Part shown: positions 9,455-62,218 of the stretch, one piece after another
Position numbering within the stretch: the stretch's first letter is position 1
Layout of the letters: every line of letters starts with the position of its first letter
DNA from: a virus
IMG/VR virus record: IMGVR_UViG_3300049020_000031
Coordinates: 64,001-128,000 of that record
DNA length: 64,000 nt
Reading direction: 5' to 3' (one strand)
The notes under the pieces: generated by a model
The model's database searches: none
Seen by the model: only the letters and a program-made list of their open reading frames with translations
What the model was told of the DNA's origin: nothing
Position numbers and translations under genes: made by a program

Positions 9455-9976
9455 TTACTTCAACCACTCATCCATCACATATGCTTCCCATGGGGTAAAG
9501 GTTCCGGCCGTCTTGAAGTCTTCGGCCTTCACACACCACACGCCACCATTTTCAGTATTACCGTAGTCACTATGGAGTTTCAGAGTTGTGTAAGCACCAA
9601 TCTTGTCCATGCGTGGGAAACGTGTTCCGATCAGGATGACGAACAACTTACCGAATGGGCCCTGGGGGTCTGGGCAGCGGGCCACAAACTCATCAGTCAA
9701 TTGGTCTGGGCGGATTTCCAGAGTAACGCGAGTGCCTTCACCCATCAGCTTGTTGGCCAGATCGAAAGCCTTGTCCAGGTCGATATCAAGGGGATTACCC
9801 GCTGGGTCATACATGTACCCCAGGAGAATGTGTGAACATTCCGCATGAGTGTTCAGCATCTCCGTGCATTCATCGTATGAATATTGACCGGGGGCGATCA
9901 TTGTTGGCAGCAGGAAGTGGTTGGTGGCTTCAATTTCCAAGCCCTTGAAGAATTTTACTGGTTTTGTGCGGTCCAT
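9455..9976 (-). CDS. conserved jumbo-phage hypothetical protein (close to the TGT/DpdA-like gene)
   Basis: FFxGxEIE...NGGVWC...FTPWEAY..D pattern; AAGGA SD. Confidence 0.6.
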   Translation of the reverse strand: MDRTKPVKFFKGLEIEATNHFLLPTMIAPGQYSYDECTEMLNTHAECSHILLGYMYDPAGNPLDIDLDKAFDLANKLMGEGTRVTLEIRPDQLTDEFVARCPDPQGPFGKLFVILIGTRFPRMDKIGAYTTLKLHSDYGNTENGGVWCVKAEDFKTAGTFTPWEAYVMDEWLK

Positions 9977-10105
9977 TTGTGGTATCCTTGTTTTGTGTTA
10001 TTTGTTGATTATACCGTTGCGAGATGGCATTCGCAATTTGTTTTGTCAAGAGTTCGTTTGGTAACATCTTGATGCTATACTGGCACGATATTTCAGGAGC
10101 CCAGT

Positions 10106-45122: not shown

Positions 45123-45767
45123 TCAAACTGGATCCACGTAGCCCCTGAACGTCAACGAAATTCTGGGTCCACAAACATGCAGGGATGATTTGGGGATGCG
45201 ATGGTGGTGAGTGTCCTGCATCCCGGGATACATCAAACACAGACTGCCACTTTCCAATGAAACCTTGTCAACCGTGTTGTGAGTTGATGCAAGGGAGTTC
45301 ATTGTCTCACCCAGATTAATATTTCCCTGAATGCCAGTCAGACCATCCAAAACACTCCTCGCAGCGAAGTTTGGATTCTTTCTAAACCAGATTTCACGAG
45401 TGGCGCCCAGACTCACAATTGCGATTGGTCGCTTGTCATCCATTTCCGGACTGTCATCAGCGTGCCATCCCAAGTGGTCAGTGCCGTCCTGATAACCATT
45501 CAAGAAGCACGCCTCGAACGCGCACCCCATTTCATTTTCCAGGAGTGATTTGATGTTCAGAATATCTGCGTGATATGGCTGAACACCGTATTCCCTCACT
45601 CCAGCACCTTTGCCATAAGTGTAGGGGACTTTGACATCATTGCAGTAATATTCACGCCTGGGAGTGTTGCCTACACGAACCCAGGCTAGTTCTTCCCAGA
45701 GTCGATTGAAAACTTCCTGATGATTCACCAACCAGTTTGGCGTGTATTTTACAGGCAAGTCACCCAT
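45123..45767 (-). CDS. AlkB-family 2OG-Fe(II) dioxygenase
   Basis: LNGYQDG.DHLGWHADD, IVSLG, H.HRIPK, RISLTFR. Confidence 0.92.
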   Translation of the reverse strand: MGDLPVKYTPNWLVNHQEVFNRLWEELAWVRVGNTPRREYYCNDVKVPYTYGKGAGVREYGVQPYHADILNIKSLLENEMGCAFEACFLNGYQDGTDHLGWHADDSPEMDDKRPIAIVSLGATREIWFRKNPNFAARSVLDGLTGIQGNINLGETMNSLASTHNTVDKVSLESGSLCLMYPGMQDTHHHRIPKSSLHVCGPRISLTFRGYVDPV

Positions 45768-47848: not shown

Positions 47849-47923
47849 TGGTGACTCCTAGGGGATTCGAACCCCTGCTTCCGGTTTTAGAGACCGCCAC
47901 TCTGGCCGCTGAGTTAAGGAGTC
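47849..47923 (-). tRNA. amber suppressor tRNA, anticodon CUA, encoded CCA
   Basis: Folds as GACTCCT TA ACTC AGCGGCCA GAGT G GCGGT CT-CTA-AA ACCGG AAGC AGGGG TTCGAAT CCCCT AGGAGTC A CCA. Anticodon at 47890-47888; one G-G mismatch at the top of the anticodon stem. Confidence 0.92.
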
Positions 47924-48404
47924 AAATCATTTAATTGAGATCAGCATCCTTGCGAAACTGCTCAATACACCATTCGTATGGATCACCATCCCGAGCCTTG
48001 GCTACACCGTAGGGCATTTCCCCATTACCAGTGTAGTAATCGTACAGCCATGTCAAAAATGCTGGGGTGGGATCATGGCCCAAAATCAATTCCTGAATGT
48101 CATCACGGAACAGATGACAGATCTTGTTGAATTCTGGGTTGTTCTTAATCATACATCAAATGATATGGCAAACAATTATCTGAGTCAAGCGCTTTTTGTG
48201 ATGCCACCCACCGTACATACGACAGTGGTATCAGAACCAAAAACAGGCGACAGTGGTGTGACGCTTTGATAATGGTAGTCACTGAACGACAGGCAATCAA
48301 TCGTCACTCCCATGGCAAACGATGTGTCCTCGAAGTCAATGATGCAGTTGGACCACAAGGAATTATTTTCATCCTTGGGTTGGGCAGGCTTGACGAGCTT
48401 CATA

Positions 48405-48825: not shown

Positions 48826-49254
48826 TCAGTGGTTACACTCTCGAATCCACCAAACTATCGTTGCTTTTCTACTGGGTTCTCTTGATCTCTCACGAAAACC
48901 CAAGCTAATTAGAACTTTGACTGACGCCGTATTGTCAGACCAGGAGCCGGCATATACGTCACACTCTATTGAGCTGAGGAACATTTTCCCAGCCTGGACC
49001 GCTATGCCTTTGCGTCTATACGGACCAGCCACCCAGAATCCGAAATTGGATTCATTGTCATATGAAATTGTCCCCACGGGTACGCCATCCAAAAGGATGG
49101 CAGTTTCGCAGTTACAACCTTGAATCCATGAGTCCAGGGTTTCCATTTCCCAAGTAGATGAACCCTGACACCATTTTGAATCTTCCACCGTGTAGTAGGC
49201 GTAAAGATCCAGCGCCAAGCTAGGCGTCATGGGCGTCAGGGTTATCTGATTCAT
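48826..49254 (-). CDS. GNAT acetyltransferase (RimJ/L-like)
   Basis: GFWV..PYRRKGIA, DNTASVKVL..LGF. Confidence 0.8.
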   Translation of the reverse strand: MNQITLTPMTPSLALDLYAYYTVEDSKWCQGSSTWEMETLDSWIQGCNCETAILLDGVPVGTISYDNESNFGFWVAGPYRRKGIAVQAGKMFLSSIECDVYAGSWSDNTASVKVLISLGFRERSREPSRKATIVWWIRECNH

Positions 49255-49270
49255 CCGTTGGATGATACAT

Positions 49271-49846
49271 TCATTCCGTAGCTTCGGTGGCTTTCACTTC
49301 GGTAAGAAACGCGGTACCCTCTGCATCAATTCTGAGATCACATCGACGAACTCGAATCGATCCCTTCGTGGATGGGTGACTGGGGTTCTCCCTAGTTGTC
49401 CATGGGGCAGTGGCATCCACGTGATTCACATAGTAGGATTGTCCCTTGGCTTTCACCACCCACATGGGAACCCATGAAAATTCCAAATGCTTCTTGTTGA
49501 AGTGAAACTCAACATTTCGGACATCGTTGAGCTCAAGAGGGAATTGAGCACGATGTTCAGCCATCTCCTTTTTCATGGTGTAGATCTGGGTTGCCCTCTT
49601 CTTGCCTTCATCTCGCACCGTGAGCAGCTTTCTAGCCATAACTCGTTGCTCGCGCAGCTTTCTAGCAATCGAGCCCGCGGCCGGGTTTCTGGCTTTCTCA
49701 GCGAGTACCAGAGAACGCTTTGTTTCTCGGATTCGATTCGAGATCTCACTATAAACTTCACGATACGCTGTCCGCCACTCCAGGTATTCTTCGCGAGTCT
49801 TGAACACTGGTTTCATTCCATATACTGACATTATTTGCTCCCCCAA
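49271..49846 (-). CDS. hypothetical phage protein
   Basis: Long ORF; FHFNK, WVVK.KG..YYV.HV, T.GSI. Confidence 0.65.
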   Translation of the reverse strand: MGEQIMSVYGMKPVFKTREEYLEWRTAYREVYSEISNRIRETKRSLVLAEKARNPAAGSIARKLREQRVMARKLLTVRDEGKKRATQIYTMKKEMAEHRAQFPLELNDVRNVEFHFNKKHLEFSWVPMWVVKAKGQSYYVNHVDATAPWTTRENPSHPSTKGSIRVRRCDLRIDAEGTAFLTEVKATEATE

Positions 49847-50623
49847 ATCAATCTAAAAGTTACCGCATCCGTGAGGCCTTCAAAAATTACGCCCACGGTG
49901 TACGAACAATCTGAACCCCAACCAACTTGTTCATAAGAACCCGTACAGTTGTCTCTACACCAATCCTTCACATCCAGCAAAGTGTTTTCAGTGAAGTTGA
50001 TGATCTTGACTAGACTCCAACTATCTGGATACTTTGCCTTGATCGACTCGACGGTGTTGTAATCCTCCCACTCGTCCTCTTCCATGAATTCATCTATATT
50101 CATTTCTTCCCCCGTTGTCCATGTTGGGTGATCTCATCACCCCTTGCCAAATAGAATGCAAGTGCATCACGTTCGTCGTTTATTAACCAGAAGTGATAGC
50201 GCTTTTCATCCTTAACTCTTCCCCTACCCTTGTACCAAGTGATCTGAATACCCATTGATTCTGCCAATTCCTTGAAATACGCTTGTGCATCTTTCCAAGT
50301 TGCAATTTGATCCGGAGTAAAGGGTGTTCTAACTACCCATGGATGAATCATTTGTTCACCTCACCGACAATACGTCCACCCATAAGAGCAATGATCATCG
50401 CTTCCTCCTTGGTTTCCACGTAGAAGAAGTGAAACGACAAGTTGACTCCGGGTGATGGATTGGCATCACTGTATCCCAACCAATTACCTGGCGTTGTTTT
50501 ACCATTCGACCACTTGATGCTCTTGCCGCCAAGTTCATAGAATTGACGCATCATTTGTTCTCGCGAGGACCAGAATGATTCCAGGGAGTCGTCATACTGC
50601 AAGCAAACTCTGATTACTGGCAT
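49831..50623 (-). CDS. three small paralogue-family ORFs (49831..50103, 50100..50351, 50348..50623)
   Basis: C-termini DAVTFRLIWG, DALAFYLARG, EEAMIIALMG. Confidence 0.65.
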
Positions 50624-51042
50624 AGTGAGAACCTCTTGGTGAATGCGCGAACTTCATCCTTGCGAGCTGGGCCGATACCCAGAGCCGTGATGATTGGATC
50701 TCCGGTGAAATGCGGAGGCATGATGTGATGCTCATCGATAATCAATGAACATGGGATGCCAGCTTCCTTCGCAGCCTCGTAGGCTTTCAGGATGGCGTCT
50801 TGGTTCTTAGCTTTGAGGCAAACCTTAGTTCCAATTCCATCGCGCTGGTAGAACTGGTTGATTTCCGGCCTCTTGAGCCCTGAGTCGATGAATGAATTGA
50901 GATAAGCGTGCCCAGCTTGACTGGCGAGTTTGCCAGGGGGCATTGACAAGTCTTCGCGAATGATCGCGTACAGACGATACGGGTCTTCCTCTGATGGGGA
51001 CCGCGAGTGATTGATGTATTGGGAAACCTATTGCTTGTTCAT
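50614..51042 (-). CDS. peptidyl-tRNA hydrolase (Pth2 family) with an in-frame amber codon at codon 5
   Basis: GAAAGG SD, 6-nt spacer, then ATG AAC AAG CAA TAG GTT... The frame continues into YRLYAIIREDLSMPPGKLASQAGHA...KVCLK...IID...TALGIGP. Confidence 0.85.
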
Positions 51043-51181
51043 GATATACCTTTCAGTTAGTTGTTGAGGTTCATCCTCGGAATCTATTTAAGCACCGTTT
51101 CATTTTGATCGCAAGAACAATTTTGAATTGTTCGATATGGTCTTTATACTAAGAGTTGGTTATACTAATCAAGTCTTTTAT

Positions 51182-52249
51182 ATGAATGCCATCCAAAAAC
51201 TAAAATCCCTTCCCCATAAAACGTTTGCCCACTTGTTGATACGAGTTCAAAATTCATCCTGGTGGAAAGAATCTCTGATTGCTGAATCCAACAAGATCTC
51301 CAATCAAAGAATTGAAGCAGCACGAGCTCTACTTCCTCAACGATCCGGAGATAACGACTGGACAAATCAGGTCTTTGAAAACCTGGTTGCCTATATGACG
51401 TCAGAACAGGCTCTACATAAAATCCAGGAACCTATCAACCAACACATGTTGAATTTTGGTGCCCTTGTTATCAAGAATTTGACTCCATTGAATCAATTGA
51501 TTCCAATCGTGGCTCTCCACAATCCAGTAAGCAACGCGATGCTCATGAGAGCAAATAATTCTGGAAATACCACTTCAAAATCTTATGAAGTTCTTAAGGT
51601 AGTGGTCGATGCCGTGACTAGAAAACTCAACACCAAGTTGAATAGAGAAGGTTTGATTGATACCGATCTCTCCTACCTTGAAGGATCTGCGCAAGAAGCT
51701 GCCGGTGACATCATGAAACTTGTCATTGATCAACTGAAAATGATCGCAGGAGAACCAGACGTCTTAAACATTGAACAATGGATGAGCGGTGAGGTCGGGA
51801 GCAAGTTGCTTCAGGTTATCGATACCAATGTACAAAGATTGGCGATTGATACTGGTAGAACCCCAACAGTAGTCATTCACACTTCAAAGGAAGTGGCGGA
51901 GATTCTGATTGAACAGAATGCCCTGGACTTGAATGAATATGCCAGCTTGGTGCCAACCAATATGGATTTTGTTGGAAAACTCAAGAGCTCAGGCAACAAA
52001 GTGTATGTCACTCCTCATATTGGTAAGGGTGAAATCCTGATTGCTTACAAGACGTCGTCCAACATGGATTCAGGATGCATTTTCATGCCCTATATGCCAG
52101 TAGTCAAGAGTGGCTTGGTAATGGATCAAGCCACGTTTGTTCCAAGTGAAACCTTTATCACCCGCTATGCACTCGCTAGTGATAAGGATTCAAAGAAGTA
52201 TTACCGACTCATTGACGCATCAAAAGTGCTGTCACATAAATCGGTGTAA
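51182..52249 (+). CDS. divergent T4 gp23/gp24-like capsid protein paralogue
   Basis: C-terminal DSGCIFMPYMP...D..TFVP...F.TRYAL resembles the gp23 DAG..Y.PY...FQP..GF.TRYG signature; also VVDAVTRKL. Confidence 0.65.
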   Translation: MNAIQKLKSLPHKTFAHLLIRVQNSSWWKESLIAESNKISNQRIEAARALLPQRSGDNDWTNQVFENLVAYMTSEQALHKIQEPINQHMLNFGALVIKNLTPLNQLIPIVALHNPVSNAMLMRANNSGNTTSKSYEVLKVVVDAVTRKLNTKLNREGLIDTDLSYLEGSAQEAAGDIMKLVIDQLKMIAGEPDVLNIEQWMSGEVGSKLLQVIDTNVQRLAIDTGRTPTVVIHTSKEVAEILIEQNALDLNEYASLVPTNMDFVGKLKSSGNKVYVTPHIGKGEILIAYKTSSNMDSGCIFMPYMPVVKSGLVMDQATFVPSETFITRYALASDKDSKKYYRLIDASKVLSHKSV

Positions 52250-60726: not shown

Positions 60727-61796
60727 AATATTCTCCTTGATAGGGCCATCAACATGATGGCTAATGTCAAGTCTATTTATGGTTTTCCATAGTCAAACTG
60801 TATCATTTTCCCGTTCATCCTTAATCGTCTTAGCCATCTTGGACACATCAGAAATAATGCGAGTCATCCGTCTTTTCCTGGTTGCCGTTTTATTGATCTG
60901 AAACGACACCAGACATAACACAGTCGGGATGGCGTAGAGCAGAATCAACATGAATTGCCACTCAGAAAACCTAGAATGAATGAATAGGTTCCACAAAACT
61001 CCCACCAGCATACTGCCGTTGATAAACGCGGCAATAGCTAGGATCATTTGAGTTCCAAAGTACATTCTTACTCCCAGAATTTCCACCAAGGACGAGTCAT
61101 TTTCACGAAGTCTGGATCTTCAGGACGAACCCAACCATAGGGATTCTTCTTACCGGCCTCGGTTTGCAGATAAGCTAGTTCATCTTCCAGTTGCTTCACC
61201 TTCCAATCAAGCTCAGCCTGATATGCAGGGAGATTACCGTCATCGTAGATTCTAACAAGTTTGCGACATTCAAGGAATGTCATCCCTGATTGAACGCATC
61301 CGCTCTCAAGACCAGCTCGATATTGAACCGTGTGCAGGCGATGCAACGAGAATCCCAACAGCACCAGAACGACTACGATACAAGCTAGGGCGCTGGCGAT
61401 TGTCCAATCAATTTTAAACTTTTTCACTGATAGCTCCAATGGGAAATGATGATATGCCAGTATACGACACATCATCAGTTAATGTGGTAAGATGAACTTA
61501 ATTTAAACCGCTTGATACATTTCAGGGCCCGTTACCTCACCAACACGTTGGATAGCACCGTCGTTGATAAGTTCTTGCAGTGGGCCCCGGACTTCACTCA
61601 ACCAATTGGTGACTGTGTGGCCGTCAGCCTTCACTGCTTCGCTGATCTGTGCCCAAGTAGCGGTTCCGCTCTTTGCGATGAAGTTATCCAGAGTGCTCAA
61701 CATTTTGCGACGATTTACGGCCATTTTGATCTCCTTGTTGCGATAGTTGATTATACTTCATTTGGTGAAAAACGCAACAAGTATTTGAATCCAATG

Positions 61797-61823
61797 AAAA
61801 AGAGTGGCTTGCGCCACTCTTTT
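61797..61823 (-). terminator. terminator of the tmRNA gene
   Basis: AAGAGTGGC-GCAA-GCCACTCTTTTT. Confidence 0.8.
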
Positions 61824-62183
61824 AAGGTCATGTTGTTACACAGTTGACCGAACTATGAATCAGGCCGCGATGGCTTGATTGTAGGAATTATCGTTTGCAG
61901 ATAAAAGTTTCGCATCCTTAACGACGTCGCATGTCGTGTTGTCAAGCTCCGATATCTCGCCGAGTCGATAGCCAGTTCACCCCCATCACAAGCGCTCTAG
62001 CGTTCCAAACTGCCTCAGCGAGAGTTGAACTCGCCCGCGTCTACATCGCAACAACTTTGACCCCGTAAGCGCCGGAATCGAACCGACGTGCTGGAGCGCT
62101 TGTGGTGGAGGTGGGGAGAGTCGAACTCCCGTGTTCGCCGCCTTCACTTTACCATCTGGTGGGTGATCCCACCTACAACAATT
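61824..62183 (-). ncRNA. ssrA: circularly permuted (two-piece) tmRNA
   Basis: The acceptor piece (T-arm GGGAG TTCGACT CTCCC, then CACCTCC-A-CCA ending at 62103) precedes the coding piece. The coding piece starts GGGGGTG at 61984 (G3.U70 pair) and carries the tag ORF GCA..TGA at 61898-61860 = ANDNSYNQAIAA*. Confidence 0.9.
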
Positions 62184-62189
62184 TCAATT

Positions 62190-62218
62190 AGTATAACACC
62201 ATGATATTTACACCGCAA
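62190..62218 (-). promoter_or_regulatory. sigma70-type promoter of the tmRNA
   Basis: TTGCGG, 17-nt spacer, TATACT. Confidence 0.65.

Follow-up and report, generated by a model that had tools for sequence, protein, structure and literature searches.

A candidate stop-codon gate on a Pth2-like gene of a phage genome and its pairing with a phage-encoded suppressor-type tRNA

Stop-codon-recoded phages with suppressor tRNAs have reportedly been described by Ivanova (2014) and Borges (2022). The gene prfB, which encodes RF2, undergoes a programmed +1 frameshift at CUU UGA C and carries an internal Shine-Dalgarno (SD) sequence, while in selenocysteine and pyrrolysine insertion, as in the bldA/TTA gating of Streptomyces, a special tRNA decides translation, bldA being the reader of a rare sense codon. 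The stop-recoded phages are summarised in 10.1101/2024.03.08.584096, and decoding of four-base words is represented by the laboratory frameshift suppressors SufB2 and SufJ and by engineered quadruplet tRNAs (PMC4238358, PMC7803779). Besides, suppressor tRNAs without an assigned target have been reported from the standard-code phages Atu_ph07 and XacN1 (PMC6102473, PMC5852040), and PTH2 has been recorded in jumbo phages without mention of a gate (PMC7824862). For the phage locus described here, the best explanation, and in our judgement a likely one, is a lock-and-key translation switch that acts on one gene.

The window, i.e., the whole stretch of 64,000 nucleotides that was analysed (positions 64,001 to 128,000 of the IMG/VR record IMGVR_UViG_3300049020_000031), contains the following features, the last one listed lying outside the window in the same genome.

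51085..51114, minus strand: σ70-type promoter candidate (TTGCGA at 51114-51109, spacer of 17-18 nt, TTAAATA at 51091-51085)
51049..51054, minus strand: Shine-Dalgarno sequence GAAAGG, 6 nt upstream of the ATG
51028..51042, minus strand: leader M-N-K-Q and amber gate, the stop being at the same register in relatives
50614..51042, minus strand: Pth2-like gene, 142 aa with readthrough (PF01981, AlphaFold model, Foldseek, residue counts)
49831..50103, minus strand: small acidic protein of the EDEWED type, co-occurring in 15 loci
49271..49831, minus strand: conserved neighbour, a basic helical hairpin of about 90 aa fused to a β-rich FHFNK/PMWV domain (pLDDT 94.5)
48160..48188, minus strand: σ70-like site (10/12 consensus match) preceding a 73-aa ORF and the tRNA
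47849..47923, minus strand: putative amber-suppressor-type tRNA, anticodon CUA at 47890-47888 (Rfam 63.8 bits)
61769..62195, minus strand: permuted (two-piece) tmRNA with the tag ANDNSYNQAIAA, a translation-rescue context
G000:C1:1247-1630, plus strand: canonical ungated Pth2 with DxGxT intact and a direct ATG start

Along the minus strand, the start codon (ATG, 51042-51040) is followed by AAC AAG CAA and, at codon 5, by TAG (51030-51028), with G as the next base, and the frame past the TAG stays open up to TAA at 50616-50614. The ribosome-binding site, the start, the leader with its amber codon and the open frame of 142 aa were thus found as the initial annotation had described them. The SD pairing energy is -3.9 kcal/mol in the window gene and -5 to -9 kcal/mol in most relatives. 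Between the TAG and strand β1 (residues 23-29 of the AlphaFold model, pLDDT 92.6) there are zero ATG, GTG or TTG codons, and the earliest TTG and ATG past the TAG, at 50949 and 50943 (residues 32 and 34), both lie beyond β1, so that the usual 109-aa gene call is left without this strand, again as previously noted for the TTG start. Many database entries for the gated Pth2-like family, which are 108-109 aa long, are probably shortened gene calls of this kind. The readthrough product matches the PF01981 profile over residues 22-141 (E 1e-21, 77.6 bits against a cut-off of 23), and its model has the Pth2 α/β fold (Foldseek to 2zv3, E 1e-10, TM 0.91 by target length). A search for RNA structure around the gate gave nothing above shuffled sequences (z +0.4). 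A frameshift of the prfB type was rejected for the window gate, which reads CAA TAG G, is in frame and has no slippery CUU-stop.

The promoter upstream of the gene had been called late-type. The octamer CTTAAATA at 51092-51085 is not enriched (3 found against 1.25 expected), and an upstream element of the form TTG(C/A)xx-N16-18-TAAATA, or similar, is conserved at about the same distance in L343, L346, L348, L005, Sinorhizobium phage Phosso and other relatives, the -35 of Phosso being TTGACA. A T4-type late promoter (a TATAAATA-like -10 with no -35) was rejected because a TTG-type hexamer stands 16-18 nt upstream in the window and in many relatives. Since these -35/-10 pairs recur, the promoter looks σ70-type and the late-type assignment was abandoned; the promoter of the gated gene is probably early.

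The tRNA-CUA folds into a regular cloverleaf with a 7-nt anticodon loop (CU-CUA-AA), U33, A37, A73 and an encoded CCA. The 141.5-kb record, which CheckV estimates to be 33% complete, has no other tRNA. The σ70-like site at 48160..48188 may give the tRNA-CUA a transcript of its own. Identity as a tRNA-Pyl was rejected: the ARAGORN label reflects the anticodon only, and the molecule has a canonical cloverleaf, a 5-position anticodon stem and a TUC T-loop, whereas tRNA-Pyl has a 6-bp anticodon stem, a 3-nt variable loop and a short D-loop. The genome itself is not recoded, in agreement with the initial annotation. TAG terminates 26 of the 254 ORFs in the record, frames close after TAG as they do after other stops (median of about 16 vs 15 codons), and ORFs of at least 200 aa cover 49% of the record under code 11 and 53% under code 15; with so small a gain and TAG behaving as a true stop, recoding to code 15 was rejected. 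The 141.5 kb of this 33% complete record yielded no convincing second amber-gated gene. The permuted tmRNA is also found near the gated gene in several relatives, and its tag suggests a proteobacterial, probably alphaproteobacterial, host.

Conservation of the gate was assessed in 122 loci of the subfamily, which were collected by scanning contigs of viral, metagenomic and genomic origin and curated by hand, and 109 of them are gated while 13 are open; after collapsing at 80% identity, 77 of 89 representatives are gated, 57 with a key tRNA, and 12 are open. The in-frame gates comprise TAG (61), double TAG (9), TGA (5), TAA (2) and TAA+TAG (1), and the gates with a +1 shift comprise UAGC (11), CAU-UGA (13), UAAC (3), UAGG (2), UAGA (1) and UGAC (1), every gate in the set placing a stop in the leader frame. 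The leaders vary freely in sequence and span 2-13 codons, most of them with a strong SD. The nearest relatives (70-83% identical) carry a stop at the same register, which makes the window TAG neither a chance event nor a sequencing error: L343 (83% identical) has MSQL-TAG with a CUA tRNA 2.3 kb away, L348 and L005 combine a TAG gate with a CUA tRNA, L346 has a TAG gate with no tRNA within the 20 kb examined, and L344, L345, L001 and L002 (70-72%) have TGA at the same register together with a UCA tRNA. In L006 and L084 the leader ends in TAG-G and the core lies in the +1 frame, and the L006 tRNA has a CCU-A loop. The early stop, whose conservation the initial annotation had left to be checked, is conserved in most of the subfamily.

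Cultured phages are among the carriers. Phosso has MKY-TAG and a CUA tRNA, and Agrobacterium phage Atu_ph07 has a MIGEHF-TGA gate and a UCA tRNA. The Atu_ph07 paper lists one UCA suppressor without an assigned target (PMC6102473). Named bacteria, too, carry a gate with an adjoining key, in Pseudomonas on megaplasmids and in Bosea and Psychromonas on contigs, and the close homologues in the plasmid collection are all on plasmids of 0.7-1.3 Mb. At L015:9940-10010 and L325:423-506, one leader has TAA as well as TAG in frame, and an odd tRNA of the record, with a UUA-centred loop, could read both; at L094:~9900-10000 and L106:~2400-2470 there are in-frame TAA gates (ML-TAA) with strong SDs and no UUA tRNA found nearby. 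At L035:9830-10010, the leader holds two TAGs with a CUA tRNA gene in frame between them, so that one transcript could give either the tRNA or the message.

The gate and the anticodon vary together. A matching odd tRNA is present in 79 of the 109 gated loci (57 representatives), and none of the 109 gates is accompanied solely by a non-matching tRNA. With gates and keys labelled by hand, and frameshift keys assigned partly by adjacency and match, the in-frame pairs are TAG/CUA (53), TGA/UCA (5) and TAA+TAG/UUA-like (1), and the four-base pairs are UAGC/GCU-A (6), CAUU/AAU-G or GAU-G (9), UAAC/AUU-A (2) and, once each, UAGG/CCU-A, UAGA/UCUA and UGAC/GUC-A; in the +1 classes, positions 34-37 of the tRNA are complementary to the four-base word. 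On a tree from a quick search over 122 columns, with many open forks, there are 12 gate changes, 12 tRNA changes and 12 joint changes, and the independent pairs on well-supported branches number 2-3 per contrast, which does not suffice for a sign test. Of the long loci with an in-frame gate, 27 of 35 have a suppressor in the flank, against 2 of 27 among the long loci of canonical phage Pth2. Searches for suppressors by DNA pattern mixed CUA with Arg-UCU and UCA with Leu-CAA, and selected hits were re-checked in ARAGORN. The key tRNA is often 85-500 nt upstream of the gated gene on the same strand. No key was found in 30 gated loci, many of them short contigs; these include L012, L036 and L041, from records that are 49-58% complete, and both TAA gates. 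Co-occurrence of the early TAG with tRNA-CUA was borne out across 53 loci, and the pairing extends beyond the amber case of the initial annotation to opal, double-stop and +1 (four-base) keys. Given this covariation, it is likely that the window gene is the specific target of the phage tRNA-CUA, as the initial annotation had proposed.

The gated protein departs from canonical Pth2 at one catalytic position. The window protein keeps K38, Q42, H45, D103 and T119 and has Ile107 at the canonical Thr position; across the family, K38 is conserved in 108 of 109 gated rows and D103 in 101 of 101, and the Thr position of DxGxT is occupied by Val or Ile in 88 of 90 aligned gated rows, whereas all 13 outgroup Pth2, like the five solved structures inspected, have the Thr. 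K38 and D103 presumably correspond to the catalytic Lys18 and Asp86 of Sulfolobus Pth2, and we take the Thr of D-x-G-x-T to be Thr90, the third residue of the Pth2 catalytic triad. The gated proteins also have a new near-invariant Tyr25, Tyr65 and His106 and a PPHF-x-G loop. An ungated sister clade has the same active site as the gated proteins, which counts against the best explanation. Because of the Ile at the Thr position and the canonical ungated Pth2 elsewhere in the genome, the gated gene is filed here as a Pth2-like paralogue and predicted hydrolase. Its earlier description as the Pth of this phage holds for the fold, the Lys and the Asp, and fails at the replaced Thr and at the second, canonical copy. 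Several Pth2 types occur together in some phages, for example at L006:7837-8337, where an ungated sister-clade paralogue with an N-terminal LDxDIQALLDERART helix lies 2.2 kb upstream of the gated copy.

Genes around the gated locus recur to different extents. The helical-hairpin neighbour family is found near the gated gene in 45 loci, usually just downstream, its two parts being fused, separate or duplicated. The window member (49271..49831) had no Pfam or PHROG match, its Atlas fold matches were 0.85 or less, and the fold search gave only generic helical hairpins (Z of 10 or less) and uncharacterised phage proteins, with the β-rich domain barely covered. HD-like and kinase-phosphatase genes neighbour the gated gene in other clades; the HD-like family (phrog_14850) lies downstream of it at L143:1268-1948 and in 15 other loci, mostly of the frameshift clade, and in L133 and L174 the sequence upstream of the HD-like gene resembles the post-gate motif, so that this gene may be gated too. 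In the window, a divergent stand-alone Gp23 major-capsid-like gene (51128-52249, plus strand) is directly upstream of the promoter, and two further genes, one for a GNAT acetyltransferase (48826-49254, minus strand) that separates the tRNA from the gated gene and one for an AlkB-like dioxygenase (45123-45767, minus strand), do not recur near the gate in relatives. Additionally, tRNA-like RNAs whose anticodon arm is aberrant and ends in a UUCG tetraloop adjoin gated loci at L102:8931-9012 and L120:~1612-1690. Unusual tRNAs elsewhere (L321-L322, L331-L332) comprise, in Atu_ph07, a tRNA-Val(AAC) and two long tRNA-like genes that bear inserts, and, in G004, many Leu and Ala isoacceptors.

In the proposed switch, ribosomes would start at the ATG served by the SD and meet UAG at codon 5, where host RF1 would usually release MNKQ, and the full-length Pth2-like protein would be made only if the phage tRNA wins. 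That this protein needs the phage tRNA to beat the release factor at the gate is, from the sequence evidence, very likely. The inserted residue is probably immaterial; our guess from U35 and A73 is Lys or Gln, a deduction that rests on E. coli suppressors. We are evenly divided on whether the gate acts as a stress sensor and not as a fixed throttle. The coupling of output to suppressor supply or termination stress, and a supply of substrate to the enzyme by the MNKQ minigene, both suggested in the initial annotation, are likewise conjectural. With the gate as a sensor, readthrough would increase if release factors became limiting, or if the cleavage or blocking of host tRNAs, or their retention as peptidyl-tRNA, freed synthetases to charge this tRNA of weak identity. 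Acceptor-stem identity elements are not common to the key tRNAs across the family, and this, together with the stop in every leader frame and the strong SDs of most leaders, implies that readthrough should respond to a shortage of release factor or to idle synthetases. A sensor of Lys starvation specifically was set aside as weak, the protein having 10 Lys codons with one in the leader. Next to the ungated canonical Pth2, the gated protein would serve as a second enzyme that can be induced, and we lean slightly towards its deacylating N-blocked aminoacyl-tRNAs by an altered chemistry, which is proposed because the canonical Thr is missing.

The same tRNA-dependent readthrough could instead work as a fixed throttle or delay that keeps a potentially harmful enzyme low or awaits maturation of the tRNA, an account we regard as rather unlikely, though it is the chief competitor as to purpose. 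Pth2 of the archaeal type is able to strip fMet-tRNA. With double and internal gates the leak would be squared, the tRNA often stands immediately upstream on the same strand, and the leader has no conserved sensing motif. A weak SD or a rare start codon would be cheaper, yet most leaders keep a strong SD, and the two-part system has been retained through the 12 paired changes. It is less probable still that the main job of the tRNA lies elsewhere, as a decoy for anticodon nucleases or in global readthrough of host stops, with the gated gene reporting or compensating for it. CUA tRNAs do stand beside ungated Pth2 in XacN1 and in four IMG/VR records, which indicates that CUA tRNAs have other roles, and one record holds both CUA and UCA tRNAs; however, the switches among amber, opal and four-base keys track the gated gene exactly, and the single apparent amber target in the 141.5 kb also speaks against a wider role.

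Reinitiation or a non-canonical start just past the stop (at GTT in the window gene, and at ATT or GTG in its relatives) would make the protein independently of the tRNA. A Val or Ile codon follows the gate TAG in 25 of 49 representatives, a bias attributable to the preference for a purine after the stop, and GTG directly follows the stop in four TGA-gated relatives; some gates are followed instead by GAA, GAC, AAC or GGC. Seven homologues (L011, L032, L102, L105, L112, L120 and L136) have a second in-frame TAG inside an otherwise intact core, about 30-36 codons in and mostly as GAY CCA TAG (D-P-stop) after the first helix, with no trace of local TAG recoding at these loci, and nine homologues have two TAGs in the leader. 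Among the representatives, 47 of 49 have a purine after the gate TAG and 19 of 49 have Thr before it, the corresponding counts at ordinary TAG stops being 59 and 4 of 117, with p-values for both contexts that are inflated by shared ancestry; a purine after and a Thr before the stop favour suppression and weak termination. The core TAGs, the double leader TAGs and this context argue against a downstream start, which would also leave the paired anticodon changes unexplained, and we consider it highly improbable. We place a little below it the idea that the minigene is the working product, taxing host translation by peptidyl-tRNA drop-off in the manner of lambda bar, with readthrough as the antidote: bar-type minigenes do cause such drop-off (PMC8012679), and a strong SD with an ORF of 2-7 codons fits them, but the leader sequence and its last codon vary widely, some leaders run to 11-13 codons and certain gates are placed well inside the core. 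A pseudogene, a sequencing error or genome-wide recoding of TAG is scarcely credible, for although gene callers shorten the gene to about 109 aa, more than 100 loci with intact, conserved cores share the stop and TAG ends ordinary ORFs in the record, their frames closing behind it.

Returning to the lock-and-key switch, a broader and tentative proposal is that a mobile module of jumbo phages and megaplasmids holds a private tRNA, be it amber, opal, ochre-like or a natural reader of four bases, which senses the translation state of the host. After failed termination, or after destruction or blocking of host tRNAs by anti-phage toxins, it would unlock a Pth2-fold enzyme with a new chemistry that would restore the tRNA pool, making a counter-defence circuit with a private code for one gene. 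The gated gene offers a concrete and conserved target for many of the suppressors of standard-code phages, in Atu_ph07 though not in XacN1, whose Pth2 is ungated, and the system is testable in the cultured phages Atu_ph07 and Phosso. It suggests natural, co-evolving stop-codon and four-base decoding that controls one gene, and its natural suppressor and frameshift tRNAs are offered for genetic-code engineering. Readthrough, suppressors and Pth2 are known parts, while their assembly into a dedicated module with interchangeable keys and gates is apparently undescribed, no description having been found in the literature searched, from which subscription journals were excluded.

Compared with the solved Pth2 enzymes (PF01981; PDB 2zv3, 1wn2, 1xty, 1q7s), the gated protein has the fold and the motif R-x-D-L-x-M-x-x-G-K-x-x-x-Q-x-x-H in common, and differs in lacking the DxGxT Thr, in its gated translation and in coexisting with a canonical Pth2. 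The prfB gene likewise has an early stop at which a release factor competes with continued translation, in a gene for hydrolysis of the peptidyl-tRNA ester; here, a dedicated tRNA encoded by the element replaces the slippery host tRNA and the internal SD, and no feedback loop is apparent. The insertion of selenocysteine or pyrrolysine differs in that neither a special amino acid nor a SECIS-like fold, pyl genes or a synthetase of its own is evident for the gate, and, as also against bldA, the gate codon sits in a variable leader. The +1 relatives resemble SufB2, SufJ and the quadruplet tRNAs, since tRNA positions 34-37 pair with a four-base word in both; unlike these laboratory-made tRNAs, they occur naturally, are conserved and come paired with a single target gene, while the window gate is a plain in-frame amber. 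In the stop-recoded phages (code 15 and code 4), a phage tRNA likewise reads a stop and conditions the expression of phage genes, whereas the genome studied here is unrecoded, there is one apparent target with a probable early promoter, and the keys of its relatives switch among amber, opal and four-base words.
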